Part shown: one piece after another, positions 12,716-54,939 of the stretch | Numbering within the stretch: position 1 is the first letter of the stretch | Layout: each line of letters begins with the position of its first letter | The notes under the pieces: generated by a model | Told to the model about the DNA's origin: nothing | Database searches by the model: none | What the model saw: only the letters and a program-made list of their open reading frames with translations | Position numbers and translations under genes: made by a program | Assembly: GCA_050084515.1 (NCBI GenBank) | Contig: CM114271.1 | Location: 46,810,001-46,874,000, forward strand | Origin: Blasia pusilla | Lineage: Eukaryota | Length of the DNA: 64,000 nucleotides | Reading direction: 5' to 3'

Positions 12716-14496
12716 GACGGGCAGTTGTGAGGATTGACCCTCTCTTTGTTTTCTAATGTGAATGTTGAGTGAAGGTAGGCTTGTGGCGGGAACTTCGAGG
12801 TGAGGAAGGGAAATTTGTGCTTTGACGAGAACTAGGAATCCACACGAATGGCTTGAATGATTCTACACGGTGTTGGTAGCATTAGGACTTAGTGAACGGT
12901 TCTCTTTTCTTGGATGTAAGAGAGAAGCCAACCACCAAGTCATTGATATGTAGGAAGGAGTCATTCGGATGTAGGGGTTATCATGGATACAAAATGGACT
13001 CTAAATGCCGATGTGATGTAAATACTTTTGTCAACAATAATGCAACCTTGTAATACACGAAAGATTAAGTTCTTTTGTGTTACTTATTTTGCATATTGTT
13101 TATCATATAATAGGATTGTAAATGATATGGACAAGTCATTTTCATTGACCCATAGTCATTCTTTTGTGACTCGTCAAGTAATTATTTATTACTTAGAGTA
13201 GTCATTCAAAGTCATTCTTTATGACTCATCGAGTCATTCTTTAAGACTTGTGGAGTCATTTTCTATGACTCGTTCAGTCACTCTTAATGATTCGTCTAGT
13301 CACATTTTATGACTAGACAAGTCATTTTTTATCACTTCACCTAGTCATAAACAATGACTAGGGGAAGTTGTATTTAGTGACTATGTTGAGTATCAAAAAA
13401 GAGACTCATATATAATCGGTTTCAGTTACAACTTATACGACTAGGAGTAATTTTTATGACTATAGTCTGGTTAAGTAATTACTGAGTCTCATAGCCCCGA
13501 TTTGAGTAACATCCACTCATTTTTTGAGTCAATCAGAGGGGGGTTTTCTACTAGTGTAGGGTAGTAGCGTCCGGATTCTCTTGTAACGGAGGGTGGATGT
13601 GGTTCGATATGCCGATGTAGATTCATTAGTGGAATTTTATGCCATGTGAGCCGTGTTTACTACTTTTGATTTTGTTGTAGGGTCTTGGTATATATGCGTG
13701 AGTGTATTTCATTTATGTATGGATCTACCCGTATATTGGGGTAGATCGTGTTATGTGGTATGTAGATGTGAGCAGAAATGTGGGTTTTATAACAATGTAT
13801 ATGCGCATGATATCCTTCTAACCTCAACACGACTCATGAAATATGACGCCTATATACCAAACATAACACCAACAATTTGGTTGGGCCCCCAAGTGTGTTG
13901 TATTAGCTAGAGTGTATACTCTTGAATTTCAAACCACATCACTTGTTGTTGGGTTGAGTAGCATTCTTAGGATTGGGATTACGGAAGTCCGAGTTGCAGA
14001 GGTTTTTGTTTCAAGTTCAAACAACACTTGTTTTTTCTAGTGCACCGGAATTCATGACTTGGTAGGAGTTGATGATGAGGTGGAACCAAAGTACCCTACA
14101 TATGGTTCAATGGTGAGAGCTTTGGAAATGTTTATTAGTGATAGGTCCTACGATGCATTTGTTAGTAGTGTGGTTCGTATCCCATACGTTCACGTTGGGC
14201 TATAATTTATAAAGAAGATTCAACCTCTTATCAACCGGATTGGAAATTATGTATTGCTCATGTCAATCATTTTGTAGTATATGTGGTTAGTAATGTTATT
14301 GGTATGTACTCGGATACAATGATTGGCGTAGCGTACTCTTCGCGGATGGTGAATGAGGTTGATTACTTGTGGGAGGAGCAAGAAGTGTTGGATGATATGT
14401 TGGGTGGAAAGGACCATATTATGCAAGCGGTACCAATGGGTGTCATATAATGGGGACCGATTGTGGGACCATGTGAGTTATTTTAGTGTAGTGTGG

Positions 14497-15120
14497 TGTC
14501 ACGTCCTTTAGGATAGATCGGTCAGATCTAGTAGAGCGTCTTCAAGAGTAGTGGAGGACACGCCTACGAGGTCGATGATGACCTGCTGAGGCCCTGGGAA
14601 ACCTGAGAGAGCAGGTTTCCCCTTCGTTTTGGCTCATTTGGAGCCATATTGAGGAACTTATTATTTTAGGTAAGTGCCATTTTGAGTATATGATCGATTT
14701 TCTAATTTTGGTAAGTGGCCCTTGACCTCCTACATCAGGTCAAGAGCCAAGAAGGTGACTTGGGAGAATAGGTTACCATGGAGAGAGCTTGGGAGAGGGA
14801 AGGGGTATATATCCCAAGGAGAGAGAGCTTGAGAGCTCATTCTCTCTTTGTTGAACCTCTTGGCATGAGGCGGCGGAGCTATGGTCCCTTGCCTTGTGAG
14901 TGTAACCCTAGCCTTTCATTAGGAGAGTGGGTTTGGTTTGACATGAGAAACAGTGCACATCTTTGAGAGCTATGGTTTGAGATTGTGTAGAGAGAGATTG
15001 GAGATATTTTGGTACTTCTTGTCTCATTGTTTGGATGCCATGAGTTAGCATGGGATCGTGCGTGTTTGTGTGTGTGTTCGGTGACAACGATGTTGTGTAG
15101 CGATGTGTATGCGCACGACA
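14497..15120 (+). mobile_element. Solo LTR family B
   Basis: TGTCACGTCC...TATGCGCACGACA with 4-bp TSD GTGG on both sides; related copies at 1056, 29589, 46389 and 46695. Confidence 0.92.
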
Positions 15121-15188
15121 GTGGAACAATATGTCCATCAAGATTGGATTTAGACCTTTATGGAGAGGTGTGACGGGATCATTGTGGA

Positions 15189-15920
15189 TGTCATAGTAGA
15201 TGAGGTGTAGGGCAAGATATTATCGAAGCCTTAGAGAGATCTTGTACTTCCCTATTTTGAGAGGTCATATAGACTCATATGTGATCTGCTCTTAGGAAAT
15301 GACCTACCAATGTAGGTCGTCCTTCTATTTATGACGAGTGGCAATCTTCGAGAGGTTGACCTTCCCAACCATGTATGATTCCACCTGGAGCTATAGGGTC
15401 GAGGGTTAGTTGGTAGTTGATCTCATGAGATGACCGCATATGTAGTTGTTGAGAGTTAGTACTTGTGTACTACAAGTTGGTAGGAACCTGCTAGGAGGGA
15501 GGTGACTTGTATGTACAAGTCACTTATGGAGGTGCCCAAGAGGATATACCTCGGAGGAAGCTCATTTTGAGCTCATCTTCCCTAGAATCATACTCATGTT
15601 GGGATTCGTGACACAATGCAGCTTGCATGTATTCAGTTTGGATTCTCTCTTGAAGAATGGGCTAGGATTGATCAAAGATCACACACATTTTGGGAGTCCT
15701 TTGTACACTTTCTTCTACTATTACATTAGTGTATCTGATTCATGGATATGGCTGCTTAGATTAAGCATGGATAATTGCAGATTTCATCAGAGTTTACGAT
15801 TTATATTCAACTTTATATTGGGGTTGTCTAGTTGTTCATTTGTAGATATATTAGGATTCATTTGTACATGGATCTTAGACATATATGTGCATGACAGCCG
15901 ATGTATATTGGCAACGATAT
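15189..15920 (+). mobile_element. LTR family C, short form lacking the 1.57-kb interior
   Basis: TGTCATAGTAGATGAGG start; colinear with both ends of the reverse complement of 32711-35649 but without 33450-35021. No TSD found. Confidence 0.75.
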
Positions 15921-29588: not shown

Positions 29589-30095
29589 TGTCATGCCTTT
29601 TAGCATAGATCGGTGAGATCTAGTATAGCCTCTTCTTGAGTAGTGGAGGATAAGCTCAGTAGGTCGAGGATGACCTGCTGAGGCCCCGAGAGCCATATTG
29701 AGGAACTTGCTATTTTAGGTTAGTACCATTTTGAGTATATGATCGACTTTCTATTTTGTTTTAGTGGCCCTTGATCTCCTACATCAGGTCAAGAGCCAAG
29801 GAGGTGACTTGGGAGCATAGGTTACCATGGAGAGAGCTTGGAAGAGGGGAGAGGTATACCTCAAGGAGAGAGAGCTTGAGAGCTGATTCTATTTTTGTTG
29901 AACCTCTTGGCATGAGGCGGCGGAGCTATGGTCTTACTTGCTTTGTGTGTGTTACCCAAGCCTCTCATTAGGAGAGTGGGTTTGGTTTGACATTGAGAGA
30001 GATATGTGAGAATGCACACATGTGAGAATTATGTTGTTGTGAAAGAAATTGGATCTTATTTTACAAAAAGGGAATAAGTGAGTGAGAGAGCTTCA
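29589..30095 (+). mobile_element. LTR family B variant, 3'-truncated
   Basis: TGTCATGCCTTTTAGCATAGATCGG start; colinear with 14497 and 46695. Confidence 0.85.
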
Positions 30096-30449: not shown

Positions 30450-31590
30450 TCATGGGGGCGAGAGTTTTGGACTTAAGGAGCATCATGTCGAGTGCCTCGG
30501 GTTATCTAGCGACGTCAAAGGCAAATTTGAAGAAGTTTCTTTGCATGATTGTGCAATATATGTGCAAGCAAAGCATGCTTTTGTGTGATGTATGGATGGA
30601 CCAACCAAGATAAATTACAAGCTCATCCGAAATGCCATTATGATAGAGTTTCGTAATGGAGCTACGATAATTTGGAGTACATGCAAATAATGACTGGCGA
30701 GTTTACTTTTGATTTTTGTCATTGCATGACAATAATGACCTGCAATATAGTGCATGGGGATTTTGAGTTAGAGAGGAGGAGCATGAGGCATGGGTATCGG
30801 CTACATATACACCAACTACAATTGAGCTTCATAGATATCTATCCAATGGAGGGATTTGGCACCAGATGGAAACACGTGGAGAGAATAGGTGGATTGACAT
30901 ATGTTGGTGGTCTGGTGGAGGCGTGGCGTTGACCTTAGACACGAAAGGAAGCACATTCCTTCAAGTGGGGAGGAGATCTAGATGAGGCATTTTGACATGC
31001 CTTTGTAAGTATCTCTTACTTGTAGTCTTCACTTGGATGCACTCCCGACTTTGAGCTTTGCAAGTAGAAGACTTAGATTGAGTCCTAGATACTCAACAAG
31101 TTGTGCATTCCGTAAATATCCAAGAAGCTTCCAAGTGATCATTTAATCAAGTCTCCCAAAATGCATATAATCTCCCAAGGAAGCCTCTTCCCCAAGCCTT
31201 GACCAATATCCTTAGGTGGCTTGCCTAACCCGGAGTGTATCGGTTCATTCCTTAAGGTATGTCACTTAGCTCAAACTTGAAACACTACCAAATACGCATC
31301 ATAGTTAGTTCATGGTTGAAGGGCTTGAGTGGATATAGAAGGAGAGTGCCCCCTATAGGTACTTCAAGGATTCTTGGGGGAAATCCACCTTCCCCATTAT
31401 TCACCTTAAGCCTAAACATGGTTGGCAACCCTCGGACCAGCGTTTGCCTAATTATCCAACAAGATGGTTTGTAGAGGCTTCTTGTAGCTTATGCAACTCT
31501 GGGCCCCCCAAATGCATCTGGGATCTTGGACCCATGTTTCGTGTGTCTCATGACTAGCGCCCATCTTGATTCCCCATCTGGCATCCCATG

Positions 31591-32193
31591 TGTCACATAT
31601 TAGTTTGACGTAGATAGAGTTCTATCGCGTCGACGACATAGAGATTCAATGGGCTTTTCAGGTGTAACTTTGTCCTGAGAAGTCGGATGAGGTTGGCAAT
31701 AGATCTATTATGTCGAGAATGTCGTTTATGGCAATTTCCGTGTTTTTTTGTTAGTCCGTCAGATGACCCGTTGATTGAGTCAGCAGTCATCCAGTAACCT
31801 ATGCGAGCGTTGGGGGAAGAGCCTTTTGGCTCTTCCCAAGGGTATAAGAGTGAGAGAGATGGCTTTCTCAAGCCACCTTTCTCATGTTGAGCCTTTGGAG
31901 CACCTCTTTTGCATAGACGTGTGTGGGTGTGGAGGAGTTAGGATGCTAGCATCCAGATTCTCTCATAGCAGAGGGTGGATGTGATTTGATATACCGATAT
32001 AGATTCATAGTGGAGTTTTAGGCCATGTGAGCCATTTTTACTACTTAGATTTGTTTGTGGGATCTCGGTGTATATGCCTGAGTAAATTTCATTTATGTGT
32101 GGATCTACCTGTATGTTGGGGAAGATCGGTGTTGTGTGGTGTGTAGATATGACTAGAAATGTGGGTTGTGTAGTGATGTGTATGCGCATGACA
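31591..32193 (+). mobile_element. Solo LTR family A
   Basis: TGTCACAT...GTATGCGCATGACA with 4-bp TSD CATG. Confidence 0.92.
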
Positions 32194-32710: not shown

Positions 32711-35649
32711 TGTCGTGCGAATTGTCACATCTGAGTAGCCGATAGGCCGAGATCTATCGTGGATAAGGCGTAGGAGCCAGCGGACTATCTTGAGTATAAC
32801 TTTTTCCCACAGTGTCGGATGAGGTTGAGGATAGGCCCATTGTGTCAGGAACGTCGTTTCTGACGACTTTCATGTTGAGGTCTTTTACAGTCGGATGACT
32901 TGTTGACCAGGTCATCTGCCCCTGGTAACTTGTGCGCGCAGGTTACCAAGGGAAGGGCTATTTTTAGGAGAAGAGCCTTTTGGCTCTTCCCAACCTATAT
33001 AAGAGAGGAAGATGGCTTTCCTAAGCCATCTTTCTCATGTTGGGCCGTTGGAGCACCTCCCTTGTATGTGTGTGAGCTAGGACTAGGGTGCTAGCGTCCG
33101 GATTCCTTGATAGCACAGGGTGGACGAGGCTCGATATGCCGATGTAGATTGAGGAGTGGAGTTTTAGGCCGGGTGTGCCGTTTTTACTACTCTTTATTTT
33201 TGTTGAGTGATCTCCATGTATATGTATGAGTTCATTTTTGTACATGTGTGGATCGACCCGTGTGTGGGGAAGATCGGTGTTGTGTGGTGTAGATGTGACG
33301 AGCGATGTATGTTGTGTAGCGATATGTATGCGCACGACAGAATACACATTTCTGCCAACATACATCGATTGTCATGCACACACATGTCTAAGATCCATCT
33401 AGCTATGAATCCTAACATCTCTACATATGAACAACTGGACAACCCCAATTTCAGTTCCAATTTCTCACTCCTCCCTCTCTACTTCAGACGCCGCGCCGCG
33501 CCTGATAGAAAGAGTTGCGCCCACTTAAACAAGCCGCGGAATAGGAACCACAGTTCTGATTCTTCCTCCTTCCACTCGCCACGCCCCACTTGAGAATCTG
33601 CGGAATGGGAACTTGAGTTCGGATTCTTCTCTCCTTCCTCTGGACGCCATGCTGAAATAGAGAGTGTTGGCAACCTCACTTCTGGGGTCCATGCCAAAAG
33701 GGATGAGAACTTCACTTCCGATTGCTTTCACTATCCTCTCCATCTGCCTGTAGAGAGAACCCAACACAACTGAGGAGCGGAATGGGAACTAGAGTTCCCA
33801 TAGCCTCCTTCCTATCCTTCCCACCTTCTTGTAGAGAAGACCCACAAGCGAAGAACGGAATGGGAACTGAAGTTCCAATTGCCTCACTTCACTTCCCTAC
33901 GCCGCCGCACTGTGCCATGCCATAGTAATCAACTGCAGTTGAGACACCCCACTGTTCTCCAACTAAGAGAGAATTGGAACTGGACTTCCAAATCCTCCTT
34001 GTTACTCCCGCCGTGCCAATCTTTGCTACGTCTTTGAGATGACCACCATGCAGTTCAACCACGCCTCCGCTCAACTGTGCTCGAAATGGAACTTGAGTTC
34101 CAAATCCCTTTTGCAACTCCTTGTTACCCTTGCCGCGCTGTGTCGTGTCGTGCCCTTCTGATGACTCATCCCTTGTTGCTAAATCAGAACTTCAGTTCCG
34201 ATTCCCACTTTGCGGCTCTGCTCCAAACTGCCTCTTGGGAGGGCTCTCTTGAATTGGAACTTAAGTTCTCATGCCTCCCTCAACTCCACCAACTCCTTCT
34301 CAACCTCCTCACTCCTTCTCACTTTCCAAACAAGGGCTAAGTATTGATGCCTCGCACAACAGCTCCAGCGTTGCTCGCTTGCCCTTTCCACATCGGTGAT
34401 CCACTCATCTCAAAGAATCTATGCGCTTGTAGGGAATCTTTCTCAAATCCGCTCCATTTTTTGTCTGGTTTTCACAATTGGACTAAGTTTTTTGCGAGCT
34501 TTCCAATGGCAAATTCAGATCTCACAAAATCTTGCTCAATCAAACACCATTGTGCCCTCCTTACATTTTCTTCTTGCTTGATTTTCCTCCTACCCAAAAT
34601 TCATCCGATTTGGTTTAGAATCAAACACACGTCACTCAAAATCAGCAACAAAGTGCCCATGCACTTGCTGATTTGCCCACACTCAATCAAGTCACAATTG
34701 ACACTGATTTCCTCACCAAAATTGTCTCAAGAACTCCATGCCTACAGTTTGATCCTTAATTGCTCCATTCTTGAGCAACTCCACCAGGATTGAGAAGCCT
34801 CCCCCTCTTCAAATCCTGTCAAATCTGTCACATTGCACTGATTTCTCAATTTTGAACATCTCACTTCGATTTCAGTAATTCTTTTGCCCCATGTCCTCCA
34901 ACACGGTCAAGATACACTAGCTTGCAATTCCTACAAACCCCACAGCACCACAATTGTGCTCTACATCACAAATTGAGTCCGGGTTTCTCTTCTATTGAGA
35001 ACCAGCGTGCATCTCCTTAGGATATAAAGTTGAATACGTACTGTAAGCTCTGATGAAATCTGCAATGAACTGTGCTTCATCCAAACAACCATATTCGTGA
35101 ATCAGATACACATTGGTATAACAACAAGAGAAAGTATACACAAGGATTTCCAAAATATGTGATCTTCTTATTGATCACTCCTAGCACACTCTTCAAGAGA
35201 GAATCCAGGCTCAATATATGCAAGCCGCGCTATATCACAAATCCCAACAAGGGTCTGCAGTACTAAGGAGATGAGCTCCAAATGAGCCTGATCCAAGGTA
35301 TAACCCCTTGGGCCCCTCTATGGGTGACCTGTACACACAAGTCACCTCCCTCTTAGCACGTCACTACCCACCTGTAGTACACACCTACTAGCTCCTTAAC
35401 AAATATACATGTGGTCCCCTAATGAGACCAACTACCAACTAACCCACGATCCTATAATCCAAATGGAGCCATACATGGTTGGGAAGGTCAACCTTTCCAA
35501 GGTTGCCACTCCTCATAAAAAGTATGGGTGACCTATACTCGTAGGTCACCTCCTAAGAGCACGTCACGTATGACCTCTCAAAATAGGGAAGTACAAGACC
35601 CCTCTAAGGCCTTGATATTATCTCGCCCTACGCCTCATCTACCATGACA
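32711..35649 (-). mobile_element. Long solo LTR family C (about 2.3 kb net of the nested insertion)
   Basis: Minus strand starts TGTCATGGTAGATGAGG at 35649 and ends ...TTCGCACGACA at 32711; 4-bp TSD ACGA (32707-32710 and 35650-35653). Confidence 0.85.
32723..33339 (+). mobile_element. Solo LTR family A variant nested 12 bp inside the end of LTR-C
   Basis: TGTCACATC...TATGCGCACGACA with 4-bp TSD GAAT. Confidence 0.92.
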
Positions 35650-37200: not shown

Positions 37201-37516
37201 AACAACGTTAACACGCATGGCGGTCCCAACTTTATGATGTACCTCGAATGAGTCTCTAGTTGGGACCCAATAGTTGAGTCATGGGTCAAGGTCCAAGATT
37301 GATATCCGTAATCCATCCCCTTGGACTTGGCTTGGTATCCACACCCTCTAGCCAACCTTTTGATCTACCTTGTGCCATTGGTTTACCCTCACGATTCCCC
37401 AAGGCGGGGATTGGGTTCTAGACTCCCTTGGAGACCCTTCCCCTTATATATAGTTCTTGTGGTCTCCACCCCCTCCCTACCTTTCGGGAAAGTTCTTTTG
37501 GGCCGCTCCTTGTGGC

Positions 37517-37590
37517 TATCGTGCGCATACCTATCGCTACACATACATCGCTCTCACCAAACATACACACAAACACGCATGATCCCATGC
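37517..37590 (-). mobile_element. 3' end of LTR family B closing the gypsy pol element
   Basis: Minus strand GCATGGGATCATGCGTGTTTGTG...GTATGCGCACGATA matches 15048-15120. Confidence 0.85.
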
Positions 37591-37856
37591 ATCCTCAGAC
37601 AACTTTGCTCAGCTACTCCTAAGGTGAAAATCCATGTCAAGCATTTCAGGTCCATCGCCTGACCCAAGACATGACGTCGTGATGCCTCTGATAGTAACGG
37701 TACTGCCATCACTCCTGTGGGGAATCCCATTGGGCGCTCTTGCTCATCAGCGTTGGGCTCCACCAACCTTTGTACTTGGTAATCCCAAACCAAGCGAGGT
37801 CCGATCTCCTTGAATGCATAGGAAGCGAGAAAACTCACCAATGTGGGAAAGGTTGC
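37591..37856 (-). pseudogene. C-terminal fragment of a C5 cytosine DNA methyltransferase (DNMT3/DRM-like motifs IX-X) within the retrotransposon
   Basis: ATFPTLVSFLASYAF...LVWD...RLVEPNADEQERPMGFPTGVMAVPLLSEASRRHVLGQAMDLKCLTW shows the E.E..(M/L)GFP...(T)...S...R...LG.(A/S) spacing of motifs IX and X. Recognised by eye only. Confidence 0.72.
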
Positions 37857-40800
37857 CCATGGCCTGCAGTCATATCCAATGTTGTGGGTGCCGTCTGCTG
37901 CAAGTAGACATAGTCTCCCTGATAAAACCTACGGATAGTAGATCGATAACCACCTCCCCGAATAGTCGCATACCTCAACGTATCCCGATGTGCGCAATTG
38001 CCAACTTCTTAAACGTCATGGACATCACTCTCTGAAATAACTGAGACCTCTGAGAACATGCTCGCATCCATACATCAAGTTCATCAAGTTTCAACACCTC
38101 ACCAACATCTCGATGAATGGACGGAGGTAAATCTAGCTCTCGGCCATACAAAAGCAAGTACGGTGAGAAAGACGCTAAGGATACTTGTCTGCTGAATATG
38201 TATCCCATCGCCAACCATGGCAATTGGAGGTCCCAATCTCCTAGGTGACCTCTTTGCAAGCCATGCTTGCGTAATCCTCTCTTTACTGTCTACAAAACCC
38301 TCTCCACTAGTCCATCAGCTTCAGGGTGATCTCGTGAAGTGGTGCGGTGGTCGATTAGTGCCTTCTCACACAAGGCCTGAAACTCCCCATAAAACTCTGT
38401 ACCCTGGTATATCAACATCTCAGCTGGTGCACTGTAATGACTCAACACTTGATCTAGGAAGGCATACGCTACTCCCTCACTCACTTTGTCATGCAATATA
38501 ACCAACTCTATGCACTTCGAGAAGTGCTCGACCATCACCAACACATAACAACTATGGCGCTCCGTCAAAGGCAAAGGTCCTGCAAAATCCAAACTCCATC
38601 TATTACCTAAATCCATGATCGGAAGTAGATGAAACTGTGGATTCGGAGCATTGAATGATGCTCGGACTCAATCACACACCATGCATTTGGCAACAAACTG
38701 TTGAACGTCAGTCTGCATGCCTCGCCACCAATACTAAATCTGGAGCAAGCTGTACGTCCGCTTCACTCCAAAATGACCCAACTCCTTGTGGGCATGACGC
38801 ACCAAACGTGCTCTTTGCAAAGGATGAGGCACTACACGCACTCTACCATCCTCCCACACTCGCAACACATGTGTGCCCTCCCACCAAAACCATCTAAGTC
38901 GTTGTAGGATCCGATCCCGCTCTCTAGCACTCACTGTGCTCGCGACGCTGCCAGTATGCAAGTACTCCAAGATCACTCCATCATCGTGAATGTCTCGGCC
39001 ACCTGTCGTCTCCTCACCGGCCTCTGGATCTAAGAACTCCATCAGACCTCGCTATCGAAGTCTCAGAAATCTGGCTCACCATAGCCAACAAGCCCAAATA
39101 GGCTGATGCATGCCATCCTAGCACCAACTCCTCATCACTCTCACCATGCCAACGAGCTCCAATCACATCGCGCTGACTCGGGCCTGGATTACGACTCAAA
39201 CCATATGCATCCAAGTTTAGCATCCCAGATCTATGCACCACCTGGAAGTCATACTCCTGCAACAAAAGAGCCCATCTTGCAAGCTTCCCTGTAAGCTTGT
39301 CAAACTTTATCAACCACTTAAGTGGCTGATGATTATTAATATTGGTAAAGGGATTGCCAAATAGATAACATCTGAAATGTGCAATAGCCCAAACTGCAAC
39401 CAAGCACTCACCCTCATACAAGCTATAATTCGCCTCTGCATCGTTGTTTGAGCGACTAGCGTAAGCCACCATGAACTCTCTACCATCATCTTCATGTTGG
39501 GTGAGCATGGCTCCAAGCCCCAACATGCTCTAATCGGTATGCAACTCGAAAGGATGCCCCATAATCGGTCTCCTCAATATGGGCGCAGATGTCAATCTGC
39601 CCTTGTGCATGTGAAATGCTCTCTCTTGCTCATCCTCCCAGTGCCACTCCTGATCCATCTTGATCATCAAGGTTAGTGGCGTCGCAATCGAAGTGAAACC
39701 CTTGACGTACCGTCCATAGAAGTTTGCCAATCCCATGAATGCACAAACTCGACTCACACCTATAGGGTGTGGAATGCGTGAAATAGCCTCTACCTTCGTT
39801 TGTTGCACACCAAGGCCCCCTGGGTATATCGTATGACCCAAGTACTCTATCTGGCCGTAGAAGAACTTGCACTTGCCTAGATGTAGCTTCAGCCCATGTA
39901 ACTGCAATCGTCGAAACACCTCCTCTAGATGTCGCTCATGCTCCTCAACCGTGGCGCTAAAGACTATGATGTCATCAATATAATACCTAGCAAAATCCAG
40001 ACCTGCCAAGATCTTATCCATGACCCTCTGAAATTCAACGGGGCATTCTTTAACCCGAATGGTAAGAACCGCCATTGGTACAAACAATCCTTCCCGTCAG
40101 GATTGATGCCCCAAAATATCATCTTCTGCTTGTCCTCCAATCTAATAGGCAGTTGATGGTATCTGGCTCGCAAATCCAATGAATTGAAGACCTTTGCATG
40201 CACAATCGCATCAAAGCTCTCCTCAGGGATAGAAATGGCATACCTATCAAACTTCGTTTTCCGATTGATAGGTCGGTAATTTTCACACATCCGCCTATCC
40301 GTCTAGTTGCCATGCACATCCTTCTTGGCGGGCATGATAGTGGCAGATGCATACTGACCCGTCACACTCTGATGCAAACGTCTCGCTCCACGTGGTCTGC
40401 ACATGCTCAGTGGCTAAGCGTCGGAGCTCCTCAGTCGAGCCCCAAAGCGGCGCCTCTCCTCCACGGACTGATGCGGCTACCATGACATTCCTCTCCATAG
40501 AAATGTCAGGAACGGGAGTATCCTCTACATGGACATGTCCCTCAATCAAATCACTAGGCCAAGTGATGGCACTACTAAATGATGCTAAGGTCACCATCTC
40601 TCCCGGCCGTCGCTCGATCAGTGCACCTGTAAATCGAACAGGTAATGAGCTAAGGCGCCCATCACTTGATTGCCATCCTGGTCTATAGGACGCTGACTCC
40701 TCCCAGTATTCCAGGGAAAATCTCATCGGATATAACACTGCTCCACCAACCAAGATATCGTAGGACTCTACATCAATCACTATCGCCTTGGCTCGCACCA

Positions 40801-40940
40801 CGGACTCATCTGTAGGATGTCCTGACCGAATCCTCACAACGACCTCCAGTCAGGTGATATACTATGTGGTACTCACTTCACCCAAGGATTTGTGTATTTG
40901 GAATGGACAATGCTCCGCATTGGCTCCAATCCTCTGAATG
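37857..40940 (-). pseudogene. Ty3/gypsy pol remnant: PR-RT-RNaseH-INT
   Basis: PR tail (40295..40837); RT LDLRARYHQL, LPFGLKNAP and YIDDIIVFS; RNase H FELHTD and YASRSNNDAEANYSLYEGECL; integrase HKELGHFG, RWSLDFAGPLP and HPEADGLVER; tail LAIA..HRDTLRYATIRGGGY. Gypsy domain order; multiple frameshifts. Confidence 0.95.
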
Positions 40941-40969
40941 ACGCTGTCGTATAGTAAAATCAGGCAATG

Positions 40970-42040
40970 TGTAAACTCCTTCCTCGTTAAGTGTTAGATA
41001 GAGTTTTATTAGTATTAAGTAAATTAGCTTAGGAAAAGGAAATCCCCATGTTTAAACCTCTTTATGGTGCCTCTTTTATGCGGGCCCAACTTTAGAAAAG
41101 AGGTAATAAATAAAAGATAACTTTATAAAAGTAAAGTAGTGAGGTTGGTGCTTTAATGAAACGCAAAAGTAGGCTTGGTTGGTGGCTATGTTAGTTGGGG
41201 TAATTTGGAAAATATCAAGTGGATAAAAGAGGATATTTTGGAAGAGATAAGAGGGAATCTACTTGTGTCAAAATATGATTGGCTAAGCCTTGAGAGGAAG
41301 CCATATGGCACAAGATAAGATTAGCTCTATTTCGTACTCTTGTGGGTCTCTTGTGAGTATATAAAGAGGAGGGACCTTCAAGGGTTCATTACCTTCTATT
41401 CCACATCTTGAGTATTTCGTGTCACTCTTGAGTGTATGACTTTGGGATTGCTTGCTCTTCCAATGAGAGTGGATCACCCTCTTGGGAGAGTAACTTGACC
41501 ATGGTCTATTCTCCGAGAGGTTTCTAGAGTGTGGTGTGTGTGTGGAGATGAGAGGTTTGTCACCTTAGAGGAGTTTAGTCATACTAAAATAGTGAATGTT
41601 TTGGCTTGTTATTTCCCCAATGAGAGTGGATTATCCTTCTTGGGAGAATAACTCCGCCAAAACCCATTCTTGAGGAGAGAAGAGAATGTCTGTCAAGCAT
41701 GGATAGGGGTGGAGCACGAGTTGTGCCCGACTTTCCTTTCCTTAATCCATACCATGTCAAGATACTCTTTGTAGATAGGCACTAGTTCACTCGCTATTTA
41801 GTTTATCACTTTGGGGAGGCGTTCATGAACCAGGTCATTCAATCTCCAACTCCGGTGATCCTTCCTATCGTCACATATGGAAGGACATGGGATTGTATTT
41901 TGTATGTCCTTATATAGCAATCCATGGACGTCAATAGGCTTGCTCAAGTAGGGTTTAATACTAGTTGTGCTATCTTTCTCGTATACAAGCGTAAAATAGA
42001 TTATAGGGATTTTATAGTTAGGAATTTCGGGGTCCGATGT
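40970..42040 (+). mobile_element. Probable LTR distantly related to family E
   Basis: TGTAAAC start, TATATAAAGAGG box near 41358, internal direct repeat CCAATGAGAGTGGAT...CTTGGGAGA (41460 and 41617). No TSD found. Confidence 0.45.
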
Positions 42041-42332
42041 TACGAAGAAGTGATCGCATCGGCACTTCCATTTGTGGTACCTGTCGTGAGAGAATGGAGA
42101 GTATACATAATAATTTTATATTGAAAAAGAAGATCTTCTAAGAGAATTCATCTTGCATCGACCGCGTCTGCCGCAGCTAGAAGGTCTGCCCTTACTCCAA
42201 TAAAGGCTCTCGACACCACAACGCTTTCCCCAACATCAGTCGTTGCGCTCCTAAATCCAACGAGACGCGCTGCGAACTAAAAGCTCTACCTCTAGGACTC
42301 ACCAACTAGAAGACCTCTCCATGGTTATCCAA

Positions 42333-43302
42333 CATTGCGGAAGCGTACGTTCAGTAGGTCACGATCTCATCGCCGATCTGCACCCAAACACGCACTCTCG
42401 TTAGTCGGGTCTGGGCCAACCAGCGTTCCAACCCCATCGAGTTCTCAACTCGGCGTCTCATCAAGCTCAACCTTCCTTAGTTCCTAGTTTCCAAAAGACG
42501 GCAAGTCCTTCAAGACTTGGAACAGACTTCCTGGTTAGTCTAGGGATCTGAAACGGCACTTGCGCGCCTAGCAATCCCAACTGTTCAACAGACCTTGTGT
42601 GAGTTCCAAAACGAGACCCAAGTAATTGAGTCGCGGGGTGAAATCCAAGAGGGATGTCTAAAATCGCCTCAATAGACTTGGTGCAGGTTTTCCAACCCAC
42701 TCCCAAACTCGCGTTCCGTTCCATGCCCTTGAGCCGCCCCGCGGCGCCCAAAGTGGGGTTCGGGTTCCAAGCACTCTGGAAGACCTTCCCCCTTACTAGT
42801 ACTTCTGGGGTTCTCCAATAACACCCCCCCCCCCTTTGGAAAAGGAGGGTCGGGCCCTTCATTGTGGCCCTCAACCCGACTATTTTTACACTCGTTTCCG
42901 GGTTGTTTCTCAGCCGCTGCTGAAGAATTTGCAAAGATCTTTAGTGCGTTTGAACCGACTTTCCATAAGCTTTCTAATGCACCCTTATTTAATCCAAACG
43001 CATCTTGGTGCTAAAAGTTATGGCCATAAATATAGTCAGAAACTCTCAAACGCTAGTGGCGTTCCAAATCCGGATTCTTCCTTTGGCAACCCACTTCCTA
43101 GACTCGACTTCTTTCAAGTCTCATTCCGCATTTGGTCCAGGTTTCTCGGTCGCGACCACAACATCTGAAACGCGACGTCTCGCTCGCGTCTCGTCTCTTG
43201 TCTCCTCTTTGAGACTAATCCAACGCGCAAACCATCTTAGCGTGAGCCCGCTAATGTTTCGATGTTCCGCTTGGCACTCGTTTGGTCATGAGGGTCGCGA
43301 CA
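42333..43302 (-). mobile_element. LTR family D copy, one end truncated
   Basis: Colinear with 48469-49487 and reverse-complementary to 44588-45589; ends GAGGGTCGCGACA. Confidence 0.85.
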
Positions 43303-44587
43303 GTGATAGTAGAGTCGCCATGCCTCAATCTCCTGGGCATATTTGTGGGAGAACTCATGGTAATAGGCGCCTCCTCTAAATGCTAGAACATATCGTTCCA
43401 TATTGTAAACGGGTTGAACTCTCTAGAGTACCTAGCCCGTTGTGAGTCACACCAACTCCTAAACTCCACAATGAAGTCCTGTAGCTCTATAGTGCCTACA
43501 TCACGTTAAAACCTACGCGGTCCTCTATCTCGGTCGTCCATCTTGTACGCCCAACTTGTAGGACCACTCAATGTATACAGTGGATCACTAACACACTCCT
43601 CTACACGCTCCCCCTCGTCTGAAGATGACACTGAAGGAGATCGAGGTGGTCTCTCACGTGGAGACCCTTGAAACCTCGCACCACTCCAGGTAAACCCTCC
43701 AGAGCTACTCTCAGGTCCACTACCTTGCCTCTCAAAATCCCAAAAAGACGCCGTGATGGCCTTGGTGCCCCTCTTACATGATCACTCTCAATCTTGCGAT
43801 TAAACCCTTATTCACTCAAACTAAACATGCGGCACTCAATCTACACTCTCTCATTGAGATGTGTGCTGTGGCGCAACAAGCAGCGTGGTGCAGCAACTTA
43901 ACTGATCTATCATCTCATCGACAAACCATCCTTAACTCTGGACATCCCACACAGGTCTATGTCCCCTAAACCCATACATTATTTATGCTCCAAGCATCAG
44001 CACGAAACCCAATATCCCAAATAACTTCCCAATACCCGAAAATCCCTCACACGTGCAAGGTAAGAGACCAGAATGGGTAACCTGACAATAATGTCAATGT
44101 CGCTCCTCGGCAATTACAAATCTTGACCCCAACTCAGTCGTGGAGACAACTCCTCCAATCAGCAAGTCGTACTCCTCTCGTACTGACGCTGCTCAAACCT
44201 CCTTGATGTGCGGTGCACGTCCAGCGGTCTGGTGCGGCACTGGCGGCACGGAATGGCTACAAACGGCATGGCACTCAGGAATGGGATGCGGCACTCGGTG
44301 GCATACCTTCCTTGATAAAAAATTCACAGATTGTGCTGCTTAGTGAAGAGCGGCTCCGCGACCAAGATGGTGCGGTGCGGCCATGAACGGCATGGCGAGG
44401 CAATCGGCAACGCGTTGCGGCTACGAGCGTCGCGTCACGGCACGGTACTGGATTTTTGTCGAGCGACTACCAATCATAACATAGCAACATGAAATGAAAA
44501 CTCAAAGACCATAACTCGAGGTCACCTACCATGACTCGTTGATGACGAAACTATAATGATGGTGGCGGTGGAACCAAAGTACGTGGT
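43303..44587 (-). pseudogene. Highly decayed gag/leader remnant similar to 3900-4500
   Basis: Short matches such as AATGGGTAACCT.ACAT (44072 vs 4450) and GATC/GTC.AGGTGG.CT (43638 vs 4004). Confidence 0.4.
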
Positions 44588-45589
44588 TGTCGCGACCCTC
44601 TTGACCAAACGAGTGCCAAAGCAGAACATCAGAACACTAGCGGGCTCATGCTAAGATGGTTTTTGCATTGGAGTGGTCTTAGAGAAGAGACAAGAGACGA
44701 GACGCAAGCAAGCCTTCGCGTTTCATATGTTGTGGTCGCGACTGAGAAACCTGGACTAAACGCGGATCAAGACTTGAGAGGAGTCAAGTCTAGGAAGTGG
44801 GTTGCCAAAGGAAGGAATCCGGATTTGGGACGCCACTAGCGTTTGAGAGTTTTCGACTGTATTTATGGCCATAAATTTTAGTGCCAAGATTCATTTGGGA
44901 CAAGTAAGAATGCGTTGGAAATCTTATGGAAAGCCGGTTCAGACGCACTAAAGATCTATGCAAACGCACAAGTAGCGGCTGAGAAACGACCCAAAAATTA
45001 TTGTAAGTAGAGTTGGGTTAAGGGCCACAATGAAGGGCCCGACCATCCTTTTCCAAAGGTGGGAGGTTAGTGGAGATCCCCAGAAGTACTAGTAAGGGGG
45101 AAGGTCTCCAAGGGTGCTTGCGACTCAAACCCCACTTTGGGCGCCACGGGGCGGCTCAAGGGCATGGAACGGATCGGGAGCTTGGAGTTGGGCTTGAAAA
45201 TCTGAACCAAGTCTATTGAGGTGAATTTTAGAGATCCCTCTTGGATTCCAACCCGCAACTTGATTACTTGGGTCCCGGTTAGGAACCCGCACGAGGTTCG
45301 TTGAACAATTGGGACTGCTAGGCGCGCAAGTGCCGTTTCAGGTTCCTAGACTAACCAGAAAGTGTGTTCCAAGTCTTGAAGGACTTGTCGTGTTGGGAAC
45401 CTAGGAATGAGGGAAGGGTGAGCTTGATGAGATTCCGAGTTGAGGACTCGATGGGTTGGCAGGCCGCTTGACCCAAAGCCAGACTAACGTGAGTGCCTTT
45501 GGGTACATGTTGACTATGAGAGTGTGTCCTACTGAACGTACGCTTCCGCAACACTAAGATTGACGTTCAAGGAGAGTAGGCGCACGATA
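44588..45589 (+). mobile_element. Solo LTR family D
   Basis: TGTCGCGACCC...GTAGGCGCACGATA; flanks GTGGT and GTGAT (5-bp TSD with one transition). Confidence 0.88.
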
Positions 45590-46388: not shown

Positions 46389-47593
46389 AGCTCTCTCACT
46401 CACTTAATTATCTCTTTGTAAAATACGATCCAATCTCTCTCACAACACCATAGTTCTCACATGTTTCTCTCAATGTCAAACCAAACCCACTCTCCTAATG
46501 AGAGGCTTGGATTATACACACAAGGCAAGCAAGACCATAGCTCTGCCGCCTCATGCCAAGAGGTTCAACAAAGAGAGAATGAGCTCTCAAGCTCTCTCTC
46601 TTTGTTGGAGAGCTTGAGAGAGAGCTTGAGAGCTCATTATCTCTTTGAGGTATACCCCTTCCCTCTCCCAAGCTCTTTCCATGGTAACTTATGTTGTCAC
46701 GTCTTTTAGGATAGATCGATGAGATCTAGTAGAGTGTCTTTGTGAGTAGTGTAGGACATACTCACTGAGTATGTCATGTTGAGGCCCCGGGAAACATGAG
46801 AGAGCAGGATTTCCCTTCGTTTCGGCTCATTTGGAGCCATATTGAGGAACTTACTATTTTAGATAAGTGTCATTTTAAGTATATGATCGAGTTTCTATTT
46901 TTGGTAAATGGCCCTTGACATCCTACATCTGGTCAAGAGCCAAGGAGGTGACTTGGGAGCATAGGTTATCATGGAGAGAGCTTGGGAGAGAGGAGGAGTA
47001 TACCTCAAGGAGAGAGAGCTTGAGAGCTCATTCTCTCTTTGTTGAACCTCTTGGCATGAGGCGGCGGAGCTATGGTCTTGCTTGCCTTGTGTGTGTAACC
47101 CAAACCTCTCATTAGGAGAGTGGGTTTGGTTTGACATTGAGAGACACATGTGAGAACTATAGTGTTGTGAGAGAGATTTGGTCTTATTTTAATTGGAGAT
47201 ATTTTGGTACTTCTTGTCTCGTTGTTTGGATGCCATGAGTTAGCATGGGATCGTGCGTGTTTGTATGTGTGTGTTCGGTGACAACGATGTATGTTGTGTA
47301 GCAATGTGTATGTGCACGACAATGCTCCCAAGTCACCTCCTTGGCTCTTGACATGATGTAGGAGGTCAAGGGACACTTACCAAAAAAGAAAGTCGATCAT
47401 AGACTCAAAATGGTACTTATCTAAAATAGTAATTTTCTCAACATGGCTCCAAATGAGCCGAAACGAAGGGCAAACTTACTCTCTCAACTTTCTCGGGGCC
47501 TCAATAGGTCATCCTCGACCTATTGAGCCTATCCTCCACTACTATTGAAGGCGTTCTACTAGATCTCACCGACCTATCCTAAAAGTCGTGACA
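46389..47593 (-). mobile_element. LTR family B variant, host of a nested opposite-strand LTR-B
   Basis: Minus strand starts TGTCACGACTTTTAGGATAG at 47593; pieces 47322-47593 and 46389-46694 are contiguous in the LTR-B sequence. Confidence 0.88.
46695..47321 (+). mobile_element. Solo LTR family B nested in LTR-B
   Basis: TGTCACGTC...TGTGCACGACA; flanks ATGT and ATGC (4-bp TSD with one C>T). Confidence 0.9.
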
Positions 47594-48468: not shown

Positions 48469-49487
48469 TGTCGTGCGCCTACTCTCCTTGAACGTAAATC
48501 TTTAGTGTTGCGGAAGGGTGCATTTAGAAGGACACGCTCTCAATGTTGATCTGCACCCAAACCCGCACTTACGTCAGTCGGGTCTAGGTCAATCAGCACT
48601 CTAACTCACCAAATTCTCAACTCGGCCTCTCATCAAGCTCAACCTTCCTAGTTTCTTGCTTGACAACACAGGCAAGTCTCTCAAGACTTGGGATAGACTT
48701 TCTGGTCAGTTCAGGAACCTCAAAGGGCTTTTGCACGCTTGGCCATCCCAACTGTCTAATGGACCTCCAATGGGTCCCTAACCGAGACTCAAAAAAATGA
48801 TTCGTGGATTGGAATCCAACTTTGGCTTCCGAAATCTACTCCCTTGGATCATATTTGGGTTTCGAGTCCCAACGTCAAGCTTCTGTTCCATCCCCTGCCC
48901 TTGAGCCGCCCTTTGGCGCCCAAAGTAGGGTTTGGGTCCCAAGAATCCTCTAAGACACTCCCCCTTACTAGTACTTTTGGGAATCACCACCCTCCCCCTA
49001 ACTTTGGGAAAGACAATCGGTCCCTTCATTTTGGCCCTCAACCCAACTCCACATATAGTCATTTTTGGCAAATATCTCAACCTCTACTTGTGCGTTTGCT
49101 AAGATCATTAGTGCGTTGGAACTAAATTTGCATAAGCTTTCCAACGCCACCTTACTTGTCCCAAATTAATATTGGGACTTAACGTTGTGGTCCAAGACAC
49201 AGTCAAAACCCCAAATGTTAGTCGCGTTCCAAGTCGGGTTCTCACCTCTTTGGCAACCAACCTTCCTAGACTCAACTCATCTTAAGATAGTCTTGGTTCA
49301 CGTTTGGTGAAGGTTTCTTGGTCGCGAAAAACTGTATTAAAAAACTTTCTAATGCAAAAACTCTATTCGCGTGTTTCGTCTCTTGGACTCTACCAAGAGA
49401 CCTCTCCAAAGCGCAACCATCATAGCAAAAGCCCCCAAACATTCTGATGTTCCGCTTGGCGCTCGTTTGGTTATGAGGGTTGCGACA
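48469..49487 (-). mobile_element. Solo LTR family D inserted in a chromovirus pol remnant
   Basis: Plus strand TGTCGTGCGCC...GAGGGTTGCGACA; flanks CAATA and CAATC. Confidence 0.85.
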
Positions 49488-50715
49488 CAATCCTTCATAA
49501 ATTTACTAGAAAAAAAGAAAAAATGGAATTGGGATACATCACAAGAGACTACTTTCCAAGCATTAAAGGATATCTTAATCAATGCTCTTATTTTAAAGTG
49601 ATAGGATCATAATCAACCTATCAAGTTGGCCATTGATGCATCAAGTACTACCATTGGAGTAGTATTAGAATAAGAATGGAAGGATGGATGACATCCGAGA
49701 TATCAAAAATAAAAAATACTCCATTGTAGTATTTGTGGATGGATTAAGCAAGATGATACATCCGCGTCTAACCAAGAAGATCGTTACCGCCCTATAGTTG
49801 GCGAGAATCTACGTCAAGAAAATCTTTGTTCTTTATGATATTTCTAATAGAGAAATCTACTTCACAAGTCTATTTTGGAAGGCCTTCTTTAGATTGCTCT
49901 AAATTAAAATAGTCATATCTACAACTTATCACCCTCAAACCGATGGGCAGACTAAAAGAGTCAATTGTACCATTGAGGATATGCTACATGCCTTGATATT
50001 GGAGGATCAACAAAGATGAGACTAATTGTTATCATTGGTAGAGTTCTCATACAATAACTTTATGAACTTTATTTACTCTTCAACCCTTCCTTTCACCCGA
50101 ATAGGAAAACTTCCAATAGAATCTACAAAGGTGCGTACTAGCAGTTAATAAGTATGGGGATACGATTCAAAAAGGAGTTCAACTTGCTAAGGAGTAGTTT
50201 CCTATTGCCAAAAATCGACAAAAGGATATACAAATCCATGTCGTTGAGAGTTAGAGTTTTATGGCGGGAATAAAGTTTGGTTAGCAACAACCAATTCATC
50301 ATTAGTAGGTGTGCATAAGCTAATTCCTTGCTATATTAGGCCTTTTGCCATTCTATAATATATGGATGTCATGATGTACAAGCTAGATCTACCAACTCTA
50401 CCAACGCATATGAAAATTTATCAGATATTCCATGTTTATCTTCTTTGATTGTTTATTCCCTATCCCAAAATATTTACCCTCCATCACTACCTCAAATGGT
50501 AGGAGATTATGAAGAATTTGAAGTGGAACGCATCTTGAAGAAACCCACTCAAAGAGCACATCACCAACGAGTTTAATACTTGGTCTAATGGAAAGGATAT
50601 CTGTTATTTGAGGCCACATGAGAACCTACAGCCAACTTGGCCAATACGCCATGGATAGTGCAATACTTTGAAAGTTCTCACAACGTGAATATTGTGCCTT
50701 AAATGGAGGGAGGTT
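49488..50715 (+). pseudogene. Chromovirus-type Ty3/gypsy pol remnant (RNase H, integrase, chromodomain) with PPT
   Basis: [76 protein letters not shown]...YLV*WKGYL; purine tract AAATGGAGGGAGG before TGTAAC at 50716. Many stops. Confidence 0.88.
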
Positions 50716-51089: not shown

Positions 51090-51600
51090 AGACACTTTGC
51101 AATAAACTCTAAATGTGTGATCTCTAATCAATCCTAGCCCATTCTACAAGGGAGAATCCATACTCTATACATGCAAGCTGCATTGTATCACAAATTGTAA
51201 TATAGGTATGGTCTAAGGAAGATGAGTTCCAAACGAGATTCATCCAAGGTATATCCCCATGGGTGACATGTACACATAGGTAACCTCCTCCTAGCAAGTC
51301 ACAAGCAACCTGGAGTACACATTGTACTAGTTCCCTACTAACTCTACACACGGTCCTCTCACAAGAGAACACCACTCAATGCCAATTAACCCTTGAGCCC
51401 TATATGCCCAAGTGCTTCCACACAAAGAATGAGAGGGTCAACTTCTCCATGGTTGCCATTCCTTAGTAAGGGAAGGGTGACCTATGCTCGTTGGTCATCG
51501 TCTAAGAGCAAGTTACATACGACCTCTAGAAAATGGAGAAGTGCAAGACCCCTCTATGAATAGGCCCACTTCCTCTAATACATCTACTATCTTGCCATGC
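51090..51600 (-). mobile_element. Diverged LTR family C fragment (another at about 53160-53420)
   Basis: Reverse complement resembles 15200-15700 (CAAGACCCCTCTA, GGTGACCTA, CATGCAAGCTGCATTGT.TCAC.AAT). Confidence 0.6.
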
Positions 51601-52579: not shown

Positions 52580-53010
52580 TGTCACATCTTAGTTAGCTAG
52601 TAGGTAGAGTTATGTCGTGTTAACAATATGGAGGGTTAGCGGGCTCTTTGAGTATAACTTCTTGAGGTGTCGGTTGAGACAAAAACTCCATTAGGAGGGA
52701 TTGTTGTTTAGGAAAAGTCCCCTATTTTGGGCTAGGTGACATGTTGATTAAGTCAAAATTCATCCAATAATCGATTTGCGTAGGTTATCGATTTAGGGCT
52801 ATTTTTAGGGGAGGTGCCTTCCCAAGGGTATAAATTTTAGGGAGAGGGCCTTCACAACCCATCTTTCTTATGTTCAGCCTTTGGACTCTTGGAGCACTAG
52901 GGTTTATGATTTGGGTTTTTAGGGTTTTCTAGAAGCTTAGGTGCTAGAGTCCGGATTCCCTTATGGTGGAGGGTGGATGTATCTTGATATGCTAGGCATA
53001 GATTTAGGAG
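52580..53010 (+). mobile_element. Diverged LTR family A fragment
   Basis: TGTCACATCTTAG start; AGGGCTATTTTT.GGG, CCATCTTTCT and GGAGGGTGGATGT blocks occur in family order. Confidence 0.7.
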
Positions 53011-54939
53011 TGAGTGGCTCCCTATCCAAAGGAATCTCCAAACAGTTCTTGGAAGGATCTCTCCTGCTAGATCGTTCTTCATAGAAATTTTTGATCTCCC
53101 TCAAGAAAGATCTTTGAAGTACAATTGATATACTTTGTGGTAGCAACAAGAGATATGAAACAATTTGCAATAAACTCTAAATGTGTGATCATTGGTCAAT
53201 TGTAGCTTGGCTTTACTCAAGAGAACTAGGCTCAATACAACAACATAGTTGCAATATATCATAGATCCCAACCAGGTCAGATCTAAAGAGGATGGGCTCA
53301 AAATGAGCCTCCTCAAGGATATACTCCCCACGAGCACTCCATGGTAGCGTGTGTGCACAAGTTACCACTCCATAGCATGTCACTATCAACTTGGAATACA
53401 GAACTGGCTCGCACTCCACATAACTCTACACCTAATCCCTTGATCAAAAGTGAATATGCATAATCAATACAGAAAGGCCTCTCCTAGGAGGTCAATCTCT
53501 CTAATCTTACCCTTCTTGAGCCTTATAGGCTCAAGTGGAACTACTTAAGCATGAAACACACTAATGTGCCAACTAACACGAAAGGAAAGGGTGATCTGTA
53601 CATACAGGTGAACTCTAAGGTAGCAAATTACCACAACACACCCAAAATGAGCATAAAAAAGGACTCCTTTAAGTCTCAATGTAATCCCATCTACCTCCTT
53701 ACAGTCATGAGAAATTCAACCACTAGGAACTTACCCAACTCAAGTCTTCCACCTCCTTTTCAGGATCACGCATTCTTGGTGTCTTGTCGAAGAAAAAACT
53801 TCAAAGGCAAGGGGCATGTGAGGGTAGAGCAATGTGAGGATGATTGAGTTCCATATGGCGCACTCATATTGGATCCATACCCATGGGAGGGAGTTTTATT
53901 ATGCCCACAATGGAGGTACCACCGAAAATATTTACTCAAGTCCTTGGAACATGGATTCTGGTAGTGGTCATAGGTTTTGTCGATGATGAAGAACCTTGGG
54001 TCCCCTAAGAAGGCTAAAGTTTATTCCTTTGCATCTCTTTGCGACCTCCAAATAAAACTCTTTTTTTTTCTTCTTCTTCATTCAACCATCCACGTGAATT
54101 CCTTTATAAATGCACCACTCACAACTCACCGTCTCTTCCCACACGAATTCCTTCCCCTCTCAAAGCTGTCGGATACCACATATCTCACAACATAATGTTT
54201 GCATTGGTTGTATTTCTTTTCCAAGACCACGTAATACCACAAGGGGTATCTACGACCTCTCCATAGACTTTTCCCAAGTAGGAAAACAGTTTTGCTTGTA
54301 GCAAGAATCCGATGACCACCCATAAAGGGAATGAATTTTGTTCGAAATCCGCATAAATCAAAACAGGGCATTTATTTATGAGCTTAAGTCAACTAAGCAC
54401 CTAGTCATCGCATATCGAGGAAACTATTTCCTTGGGAAGTACTTCTTCGAGTACCCGATTCTTTTGATATGTTGAAGATTATGCTCTACTCAAAATCTTT
54501 GATACCCCCTACTATGTAGCTATGGATCATCCTCCACCACGTTCTACCCAAGTGTTCGTTCTACACTTCACAATCTAGTTTTGTTCGTTAACATGCATCG
54601 ATTTGTGCTTCCTCGAAAAAACAAAAATAAATATGTTCTGATTATTCGCCACCCCACTGCTCGGGCACTGCCCCTACTATTTCCTGTCCTTTCCCCTCGT
54701 TTGCGAAGTCATCCATGAATGCATTCTACGCGAGGAATGTTCCTTACAGAATATGACCCTTAGAATACTCCAATAGCGCTCCCATATGACGCCCCCTCAT
54801 GGAGCCAAGGACTCGACGATTTTTCGCGATCTCCGAGTTGTAGTCGAGATCGTCGTTTTCTTCATTTTGATTTTCTCGGAACGGGGAAAACATAGGAAGG
54901 ATCGATCGATGACGAGTCGCATTATTATTTCGTTCCGTT

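Follow-up and report, generated by a model that had tools for sequence, protein, structure and literature searches.

Retrotransposons that carry a cytosine DNA methyltransferase (DNMT) have been reported for dinoflagellates and for the charophyte Klebsormidium (PMC5890265). As far as the available part of that source goes, KnitGypsy-Dnmt3 of Klebsormidium nitens has gypsy-type pol domains and a non-rearranged DNMT3-type domain in its polyprotein (de Mendoza et al. 2018, PMC5890265), and SymbioDIRS-Dnmt3 of Symbiodinium combines a DNMT3-type domain in the polyprotein with a tyrosine recombinase, occurs in two domain orders and is bounded by repeats arranged as A-coding-B-A-B, a layout described for the Symbiodinium DIRS elements and said to hold for KnitGypsy-Dnmt3 (PMC5890265). 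A 2025 survey, in the portion accessible, gives one sentence to retrotransposon DNMTs in 'streptophytes' (PMC12344493), and a literature search covering papers, but not their supplements, which possibly list such elements, found none describing DNMT-carrying retroelements in liverworts or mosses. The present analysis concerns a 64,000 nucleotide stretch of Blasia pusilla DNA (assembly GCA_050084515.1, contig CM114271.1, positions 46,810,001 to 46,874,000), referred to as the window, and within it a degenerate, minus-strand Ty3/gypsy retrotransposon in which a fragment of such a methyltransferase lies between the integrase and the end of a long terminal repeat (LTR).

The segment at 37593-37865 (minus strand) is read here, with a probability of roughly 0.85, as what is left, out of place and without function, of the DNMT3-type cytosine methyltransferase domain of a Ty3/gypsy family. 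Intact relatives are organised as A repeat, gag, protease (PR), DNMT, reverse transcriptase (RT), RNase H (RH), integrase (INT), B, A and B; they begin with TG, end with CA and are flanked by a target duplication of 4 bp, and the full set of catalytic motifs is retained in their DNMT. The copy in the window has lost the whole DNMT module between protease and RT, and ends in an integrase cut in mid-domain, followed out of frame by the last ~91 DNMT codons and then by 75 bp from the very end of the terminal repeat.

Relatives of this family resemble KnitGypsy-Dnmt3, as characterised in the available part of its source, in having a DNMT3-type domain within a gypsy polyprotein, A-coding-B-A-B repeats and preserved catalytic residues. 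They are unlike it in that the hosts are bryophytes, or a land-plant-like genome, rather than a charophyte, and in that the window copy is a broken mosaic; the comparison is with the published description of KnitGypsy-Dnmt3, and common descent would be conjectural. With SymbioDIRS-Dnmt3, within the same limits of the source, they share the DNMT3-type domain, the repeat layout and the coexistence of two domain orders, whereas the integrase here is of the rve type with an H2C2 finger, and the elements run from TG to CA between copies of a 4 bp target duplication.

The segment at 37593-37865, ~91 codons or 273 bp in an ectopic position, holds the end of the target-recognition region, motif IX (EQERPMGFP) and motif X (LGQAMD) of a DNMT3-type enzyme. 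The peptide singled out by an earlier, sequence-only reading of this DNA, which had recognised in it the end of a methyltransferase, is the exact reading of the stop-to-stop frame 37554-37928 (minus). When compared exhaustively with 1.84 billion representative sequences using phmmer, it matched 310 proteins at E <= 1e-3 and 54 at E <= 1e-10, with a best E value of 1.2e-25, and as judged from these matches it is far beyond a chance motif. The long matches are Ty3/gypsy polyproteins in which the Pfam DNA_methylase domain ends in the matched stretch; PF00145 was located just upstream of the peptide-matching stretch in 10 of 15 long, 6 of 20 mid-length and 13 of 16 bryophyte-type matches. In tblastn comparisons, DNMT-gypsy proteins of Marchantia, Calypogeia and Sphagnum are 56-69% identical to the piece (63% for the Marchantia protein P0166), and the C-terminus of the open reading frame (ORF) of the related locus L002 is 70% identical to the window peptide. 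This ORF in turn covers residues 7-267 of the 285-residue catalytic chain of human DNMT3A (E 5.4e-11), and its window-homologous stretch aligns to DNMT3A 236-267, corresponding to motifs IX-X, inside the whole-domain match.

A profile built from 25 domains of the family ranked DNMT3A (1.3e-23) above DRM (3e-13) and M.HhaI (2e-8) in a search of the PDB, aligning to DNMT3A in three collinear stretches that correspond to motif I, motifs IV-VIII and motifs IX-X. The host de novo enzymes DNMT3A, 3B and 3C give the best matches in the PDB across the entire catalytic domain, and motifs I, IV, VI, VIII, IX and X stand in the canonical order; by contrast, the PR-DNMT-RT proteins scanned with Pfam showed neither a PWWP nor an ADD domain, the domain is embedded in a gag-pol polyprotein, and motif X reads LGQAMD here as against LGRSWS. 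Plant DRM enzymes, the streptophyte relatives of DNMT3, form the second-best PDB group, but their motif order is circularly permuted (VI-X before I-V), unlike the I, IV, VI, VIII, IX, X of the family relatives. Together, this transitive evidence is strong for the window peptide being the tail of a DNMT3-type C5 methyltransferase, and the identity proposed by the sequence-only reading holds by this route, the piece being the C-terminal part, with the target-recognition end and motifs IX and X.

The DNMT3-type character of the domain would also suit a single capture, by the element, of part of a host DNMT3 or DRM gene. This origin is extremely improbable, since retroelement DNMTs from bryophytes and from metagenome loci share 56-70% identity with the piece, a FastTree phylogeny of the related DNMT domains places it among PR-DNMT-RT elements, and the family profile reaches DNMT3A only at the level of remote homology (E 1.3e-23). 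In that tree, the neighbours of the piece within the PR-DNMT-RT type are P0163, L002, L010 and the Sphagnum protein P0173.

The element around the piece retains the order of a Ty3/gypsy polyprotein. Pfam domains RVT_1, RT_RNaseH, Integrase_H2C2 and rve follow one another on the minus strand from 40302 to 38290 in the order RT-RH-INT, and together with tblastn matches to gypsy polyproteins they bear out the series PR-RT-RNase H-integrase (rve plus H2C2 finger) that had been proposed from the sequence. Followed in the direction of transcription (all parts on the minus strand unless stated), the copy begins with an N-terminal gag fragment at 43306-43526 (tblastn, P0160 q9-84, 53-58% identity), collinear with the protease pieces, the first of which, at 42222-42338, is the N-terminal part with the active-site region LDLGAQ (P0160 q611-648, 55% identity). 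These pieces take the element beyond 40940, where its limit had earlier been set. A 1.26 kb insert at 40961-42221, not assigned to a strand, splits the protease, homology to which stops at 42222 and resumes at 40960. The C-terminal part of the protease and the post-protease linker occupy 40382-40960 by tblastn and run directly into RT, without a DNMT module (P0160 q662-859 matches 40915-40343, and P0159 q1301-1333 matches 40359-40261). The degenerate RT and RNase H lie at 39128-40359 (Pfam RVT_1, RT_RNaseH), and the integrase at 37861-39030 comprises an H2C2 zinc finger (E 2.7e-4) and an rve core (E 6.9e-9), is marked by stops and frameshifts, and has its C-terminal part cut after GDYVYL...TAG. 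From protease to peptide the coding region has five changes of frame and at least three in-frame stops between pieces in the same frame. Last comes the final 75 bp of the terminal repeat, the B part of a repeat termed LTR-B, at 37516-37590, ending GCACGATA and 88% identical to 15048-15121.

Both edges of the DNMT piece are abrupt. Integrase homology reaches 37865 and DNMT homology begins at 37865, with no more than five bases common to the two, which moves the junction from 37857, as first suggested, to 37861-37865. The frame of the integrase C-terminus (38008 downwards) differs from that of the peptide (37928 downwards), so there is no continuous INT-DNMT reading frame. On its other side the DNMT tail is joined at 37590 to the final 75 bp of the terminal repeat. 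A tblastn alignment of P0158 that ran through this tail raised the possibility that it was a coding post-DNMT linker; this was rejected, as there was no real similarity beyond ~37590 and the B repeat matched instead. At the normal DNMT site of the same copy (~40343-40359) the linker passes directly into RT and the ~445-codon module is absent. The earlier idea that motifs I-VIII were simply deleted at this junction is not supported: the whole module is gone from its normal site, and a 273 bp piece follows a truncated integrase.

Relative to L002, the window sequence follows the integrase to position 13300 (70%; the matched interval is 12963-13300), then returns to the DNMT at 10001-10257 (69-75%), then jumps to the end of the B1 repeat at 13826-13891 (75% over 68 bp, E 6e-5). 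Over the 2.5 kb from 37861 to 40359 it is ~69-71% identical in DNA to 18 loci, in which the homologous stretch starts ~530 bp after the DNMT C-terminus, and its RT-RNase H region is 64.7% identical in amino acids to the Marchantia DNMT-gypsy protein P0166. As judged from these alignments, the window copy is a dead, rearranged mosaic of three pieces. Full DNMT-bearing proteins match only 37593-37865 in the whole window by tblastn, with no trace of motifs I, IV, VI or VIII for this copy; a piece so composed, missing motifs I-VIII and a start in frame with anything upstream, is predicted to be unable to act.

Gypsy elements with an accessory domain after the integrase are familiar from the chromoviruses, which have a chromodomain there. 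The DNMT-gypsy family is like them in carrying an accessory chromatin-related domain, and the position that the sequence-only reading had proposed, downstream of integrase, would be the same; unlike the chromodomain, the DNMT occupies that place in no intact relative. Among 113 proteins from which full-length DNMT domains were cut, and in which protease, RT, RNase H and integrase were located around each domain, the DNMT stood after protease and/or before RT in 46, after RT or RNase H in 39 (29 of them with the full order RT-RH-DNMT-INT), before integrase only in 11, probably of the RNase H-DNMT-integrase type, and without other domains in 17; it followed integrase in none (0/113). JGI metagenome contigs scanned with a 10-row family alignment yielded 304 related stretches. 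Of the 80 loci retained from these, 56 have RT following the C-terminus of the DNMT, 22 show no flanking domain, and two have only an integrase downstream. The single locus with an integrase upstream, L021 (1-2152), consists of a second, truncated RT-RH-INT element abutting the protease of the DNMT-bearing one, leaving no locus of the 80 with this order as one element. L021 also shows that head-to-tail or nested fragments of the DNMT-gypsy family occur outside the window. Examples with the DNMT inside a gypsy polyprotein include P0061 (gag-PR-DNMT-RT-RH-INT), P0166 (PR-DNMT-RT-RH) and L054, with a 1369-residue ORF encoding gag-PR-DNMT. On the strength of these domain positions, the order in the window family is gag-PR-DNMT-RT-RH-INT.

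A second architecture, RT-RNase H-DNMT-integrase-PHD finger, was found in at least 39 metagenome proteins (P0110, P0130, P0140, P0194, P0199, P0215 and others), the DNMT domains of which are 32-40% identical to those of the bryophyte type; one such protein also has a Tudor domain. The existence of two architectures means that the DNMT module either moved within the polyprotein or was captured twice. Such mobility would be in keeping with a gypsy subfamily that truly has its DNMT after the integrase, the window copy having lost motifs I-VIII through one junction deletion, as would the location of the piece between integrase and terminal-repeat end, on the same strand and inside the element. That such a subfamily exists is nevertheless very unlikely, given the absence of this order from all 113 proteins and, as one element, all 80 loci. 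The integrase is moreover cut inside its C-terminal domain and in a different frame, the same copy has its post-protease linker fused to RT at the very site that holds the DNMT in relatives, the terminal repeat lacks ~555 bp on the other side of the piece, and 21 whole-genome shotgun (WGS) reads that match the piece enter canonical DNMT sequence rather than integrase.

These reads come from a comparison of the region 37300-38300 with four public sequencing runs, ~1/100 of the WGS run being sampled. The 21 reads continue upstream of 37852 into canonical DNMT (translating as VNRIGMPRA), indicating that copies with more of the DNMT are present in DNA of the same species label, and 57 WGS reads matching the repeat tail go on at 37590 into LTR-B sequence. 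Nearly all read records on the region derive from other copies of the family. Likewise, 28 RNA reads on 37606-38013 all run on into unlike sequence, so they derive from other copies and are not evidence for expression of the studied copy; transcription of other copies of the DNMT-gypsy family seems to take place. RNA-seq reads of the same species label reached a depth of up to 19 over 37878-38013, at the C-terminal end of the integrase, in a 6/100 sample, all of them with unlike sequence from 37991.

The multi-copy nature of the region, with 97 in 100 WGS reads on it running into unlike sequence, is what would be expected if repeats of one family had been misjoined in the assembly and no such molecule existed, and no read or contig from the four runs, in the ~1/100 sample of the WGS run, bridges either 37861-37865 or 37590. 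An artefact of this kind is unlikely. With ~1/100 of the run sampled a single-copy junction is covered less than once, so that missing bridges are expected; the junctions are sharp and free of filler; and the piece and its flanks are equally diverged from L002, which fits an old genomic copy.

Beside this lack of bridging reads, several results weigh against the piece being a displaced DNMT remnant of this gypsy family. Pfam found zero families at E <= 1 in the frame 37554-37928, DNA_methylase included; phmmer found no match for the peptide at E <= 10 among all PDB chains; and a profile of the C-terminal region only, although its top eight matches are DNMT3A motifs IX-X, reached them at E 0.43, not significant on its own. 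The DNMT assignment consequently rests on transitive homology: that Pfam holds no methyltransferase profile match for the peptide formally contradicts the sequence-only reading, and is overridden by the homology through intact relatives. The signal of selection on the DNMT is mixed, as set out below, being drawn from three pairs among the 4/80 loci with an uninterrupted domain. The within-species comparison covers the 64-kb window, and other copies in the same species may have the INT-DNMT order.

As to how the mosaic arose, the equal divergence of its three pieces from L002, together with the absence of the DNMT module from its own site, points to a rearrangement within the family. Template switching during reverse transcription may have produced it, or else copies may have undergone illegitimate recombination or repair with one another; nested insertion with deletions and break repair with filler are further candidate mechanisms. 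In intact elements, along the lines discussed for the Klebsormidium and Symbiodinium elements (de Mendoza et al. 2018), the DNMT would be made within a gag-PR-DNMT(-RT-RH-INT) polyprotein and then released, and may methylate cytosines of the element's own cDNA or of host DNA.

Homology to named bryophyte proteins supports the earlier proposal of a DNMT-carrying gypsy family in a land-plant-like genome. Relatives in Marchantia polymorpha include the gene models Mp_4g09160, Mp_8g17980 and MARPO_0091s0058, and Marchantia names account for 15 of 62 cluster representatives, these coming from three annotation sets and some possibly representing one locus. Other named relatives belong to Calypogeia fissa, Sphagnum fallax and S. 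troendelagicum, with one model from Spirogloea muscicola; no Klebsormidium-named protein was present among the named matches of the family searches. Catalytic residues, counted over 114 DNMT domains, are largely preserved: the second glycine of motif I is kept in 112, the cysteine of motif IV (PCQ) in 110, the glutamate of motif VI (ENV) in 114, the first and second arginines of motif VIII in 110 and 113 respectively, and the glutamate of motif IX in 114. The domain is uninterrupted in only 4/80 loci. Its dN/dS is 0.14 between L052 and L054, 0.23 between L002 and L052 (with dS saturated) and 0.96 between L002 and L010, a pattern which, across three pairs, suggests constraint over the long term, with recent copies decaying neutrally.

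The terminal repeats tie the studied copy to the rest of the family. LTR-B is present as a solo terminal repeat of 624 bp at 14497-15120 (+), comprising A+B and read directly as TGTCACG...GCACGACA, with a 4 bp target duplication, GTGG, on both sides. Over its last ~75 bp LTR-B is similar to the B repeat found in related loci such as L002, with a terminal motif common to the B repeats of L020 and L022. Among ten long loci compared with themselves, the A1...B1-A2-B2 arrangement was seen in three, L020, L022 and L029, in which the 5' terminus is formed by A1 (~337 bp) and the 3' terminus by B1-A2-B2, B being ~115 bp; L002 and L037 show the A pair only. L020 runs from TGTCATG to GACA and has a duplication of the 4 bp CATA; its B1 is preceded by a run of purines. 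The TG...CA ends and short target duplication are therefore family-level features, seen in L020 and in the LTR-B at 14497-15120, the studied copy keeping only the last 75 bp. No significant similarity was detected between the A part of LTR-B and the A repeat of L020; the shared ends, the 4 bp duplication and the B-repeat similarity nonetheless identify LTR-B as the A+B terminal unit of the DNMT-gypsy family, and an origin of LTR-B in another element family was rejected on the same three grounds. The peptide accordingly lies inside the element, as had been claimed, since 37590-37516 matches the 3' end of a repeat that is the terminal unit of the same family (88%).

Further LTR-B pieces number six (1051-1551, 14497-15120, 29589-30063, 46424-46604, 46692-47324 and 47322-47593), and the family is abundant in the window. 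A second family copy at 1541-3921 (minus), with gag and protease and then broken, is 45-46% identical to P0160 (tblastn, q2-774); a gag-PR copy had been placed at 1550-4830, and a related one is indeed present at 3921-1541, with no homology supporting the upper limit of 4830. At 1551 its protease linker is joined to the A part of LTR-B, the first ~505 bp from the terminus, at 1056-1551 (minus; 87.6% identity to 14499-15002 by blastn). Beyond this, at 954-1049 (minus), lies a fragment of the pre-RT linker (ETWELDMGPKLTGGERRR) which in relatives follows the DNMT (tblastn, P0173 q954-996, E 2e-8) and which is also matched by P0162 q1144-1178 and P0166 q696-722. The arrangement at 1551 is read as a probable internally deleted element inserted into an older one.

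Around this gag-PR copy at 3921-1541 is an inverted repeat pair, 93-95% identical, formed by 1-711 with 6797-6087 and 810-955 with 6078-5932; the left arm of the pair (1-955 / 5932-6797) reaches the window edge. A degenerate protease fragment of the DNMT-gypsy family lies at 13874-14184 (+), ~310 bp upstream of the solo LTR-B. The insert that splits the protease of the studied element, at 40961-42221, has 40% G+C and opens with GTTGTGG, the first seven bases of the L020 B repeat; no terminal inverted repeat was seen in it, and no match elsewhere in the 64-kb window. Between the gag and protease pieces of the same element sits one of three copies of an unclassified ~970 bp repeat, 71-84% identical to each other, at 42335-43302, 44588-45551 (inverted) and 48508-49487; after another of the copies comes a fragment resembling RNase H (49503-49676). 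Two other repeat families are scattered through the window: one of ~470 bp, with at least seven pieces that are 65-81% identical (63-531, 6267-6735, 7204-7577, 31590-32052, 32779-33200, 52580-53012 and 13557-13810) and may represent terminal repeats of some other element, and another, 71-79% identical, at 15189-15818, just after the solo LTR-B, 35022-35649 and 51114-51556.

The piece in the window is itself inert; it is of value because it leads to a gypsy family of land plants, among them the model liverwort Marchantia, whose DNMT3-type enzyme looks intact. It is possible, though tentatively so, that the A-coding-B-A-B lineage of DNMT-gypsy elements, described so far from Klebsormidium alone, goes back far in the streptophytes, is present in many copies in bryophytes (models in Marchantia, Calypogeia and Sphagnum, and 304 metagenome stretches), has intact, transcribed copies, has moved its DNMT module between PR-DNMT-RT and RH-DNMT-INT-PHD places, and supplies de novo cytosine methyltransferase activity in land-plant cells. 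If active, such enzymes would be transposon products that deposit the same mark with which plants silence transposons, and their hosts, Marchantia among them, are organisms in which they are open to genetic testing.

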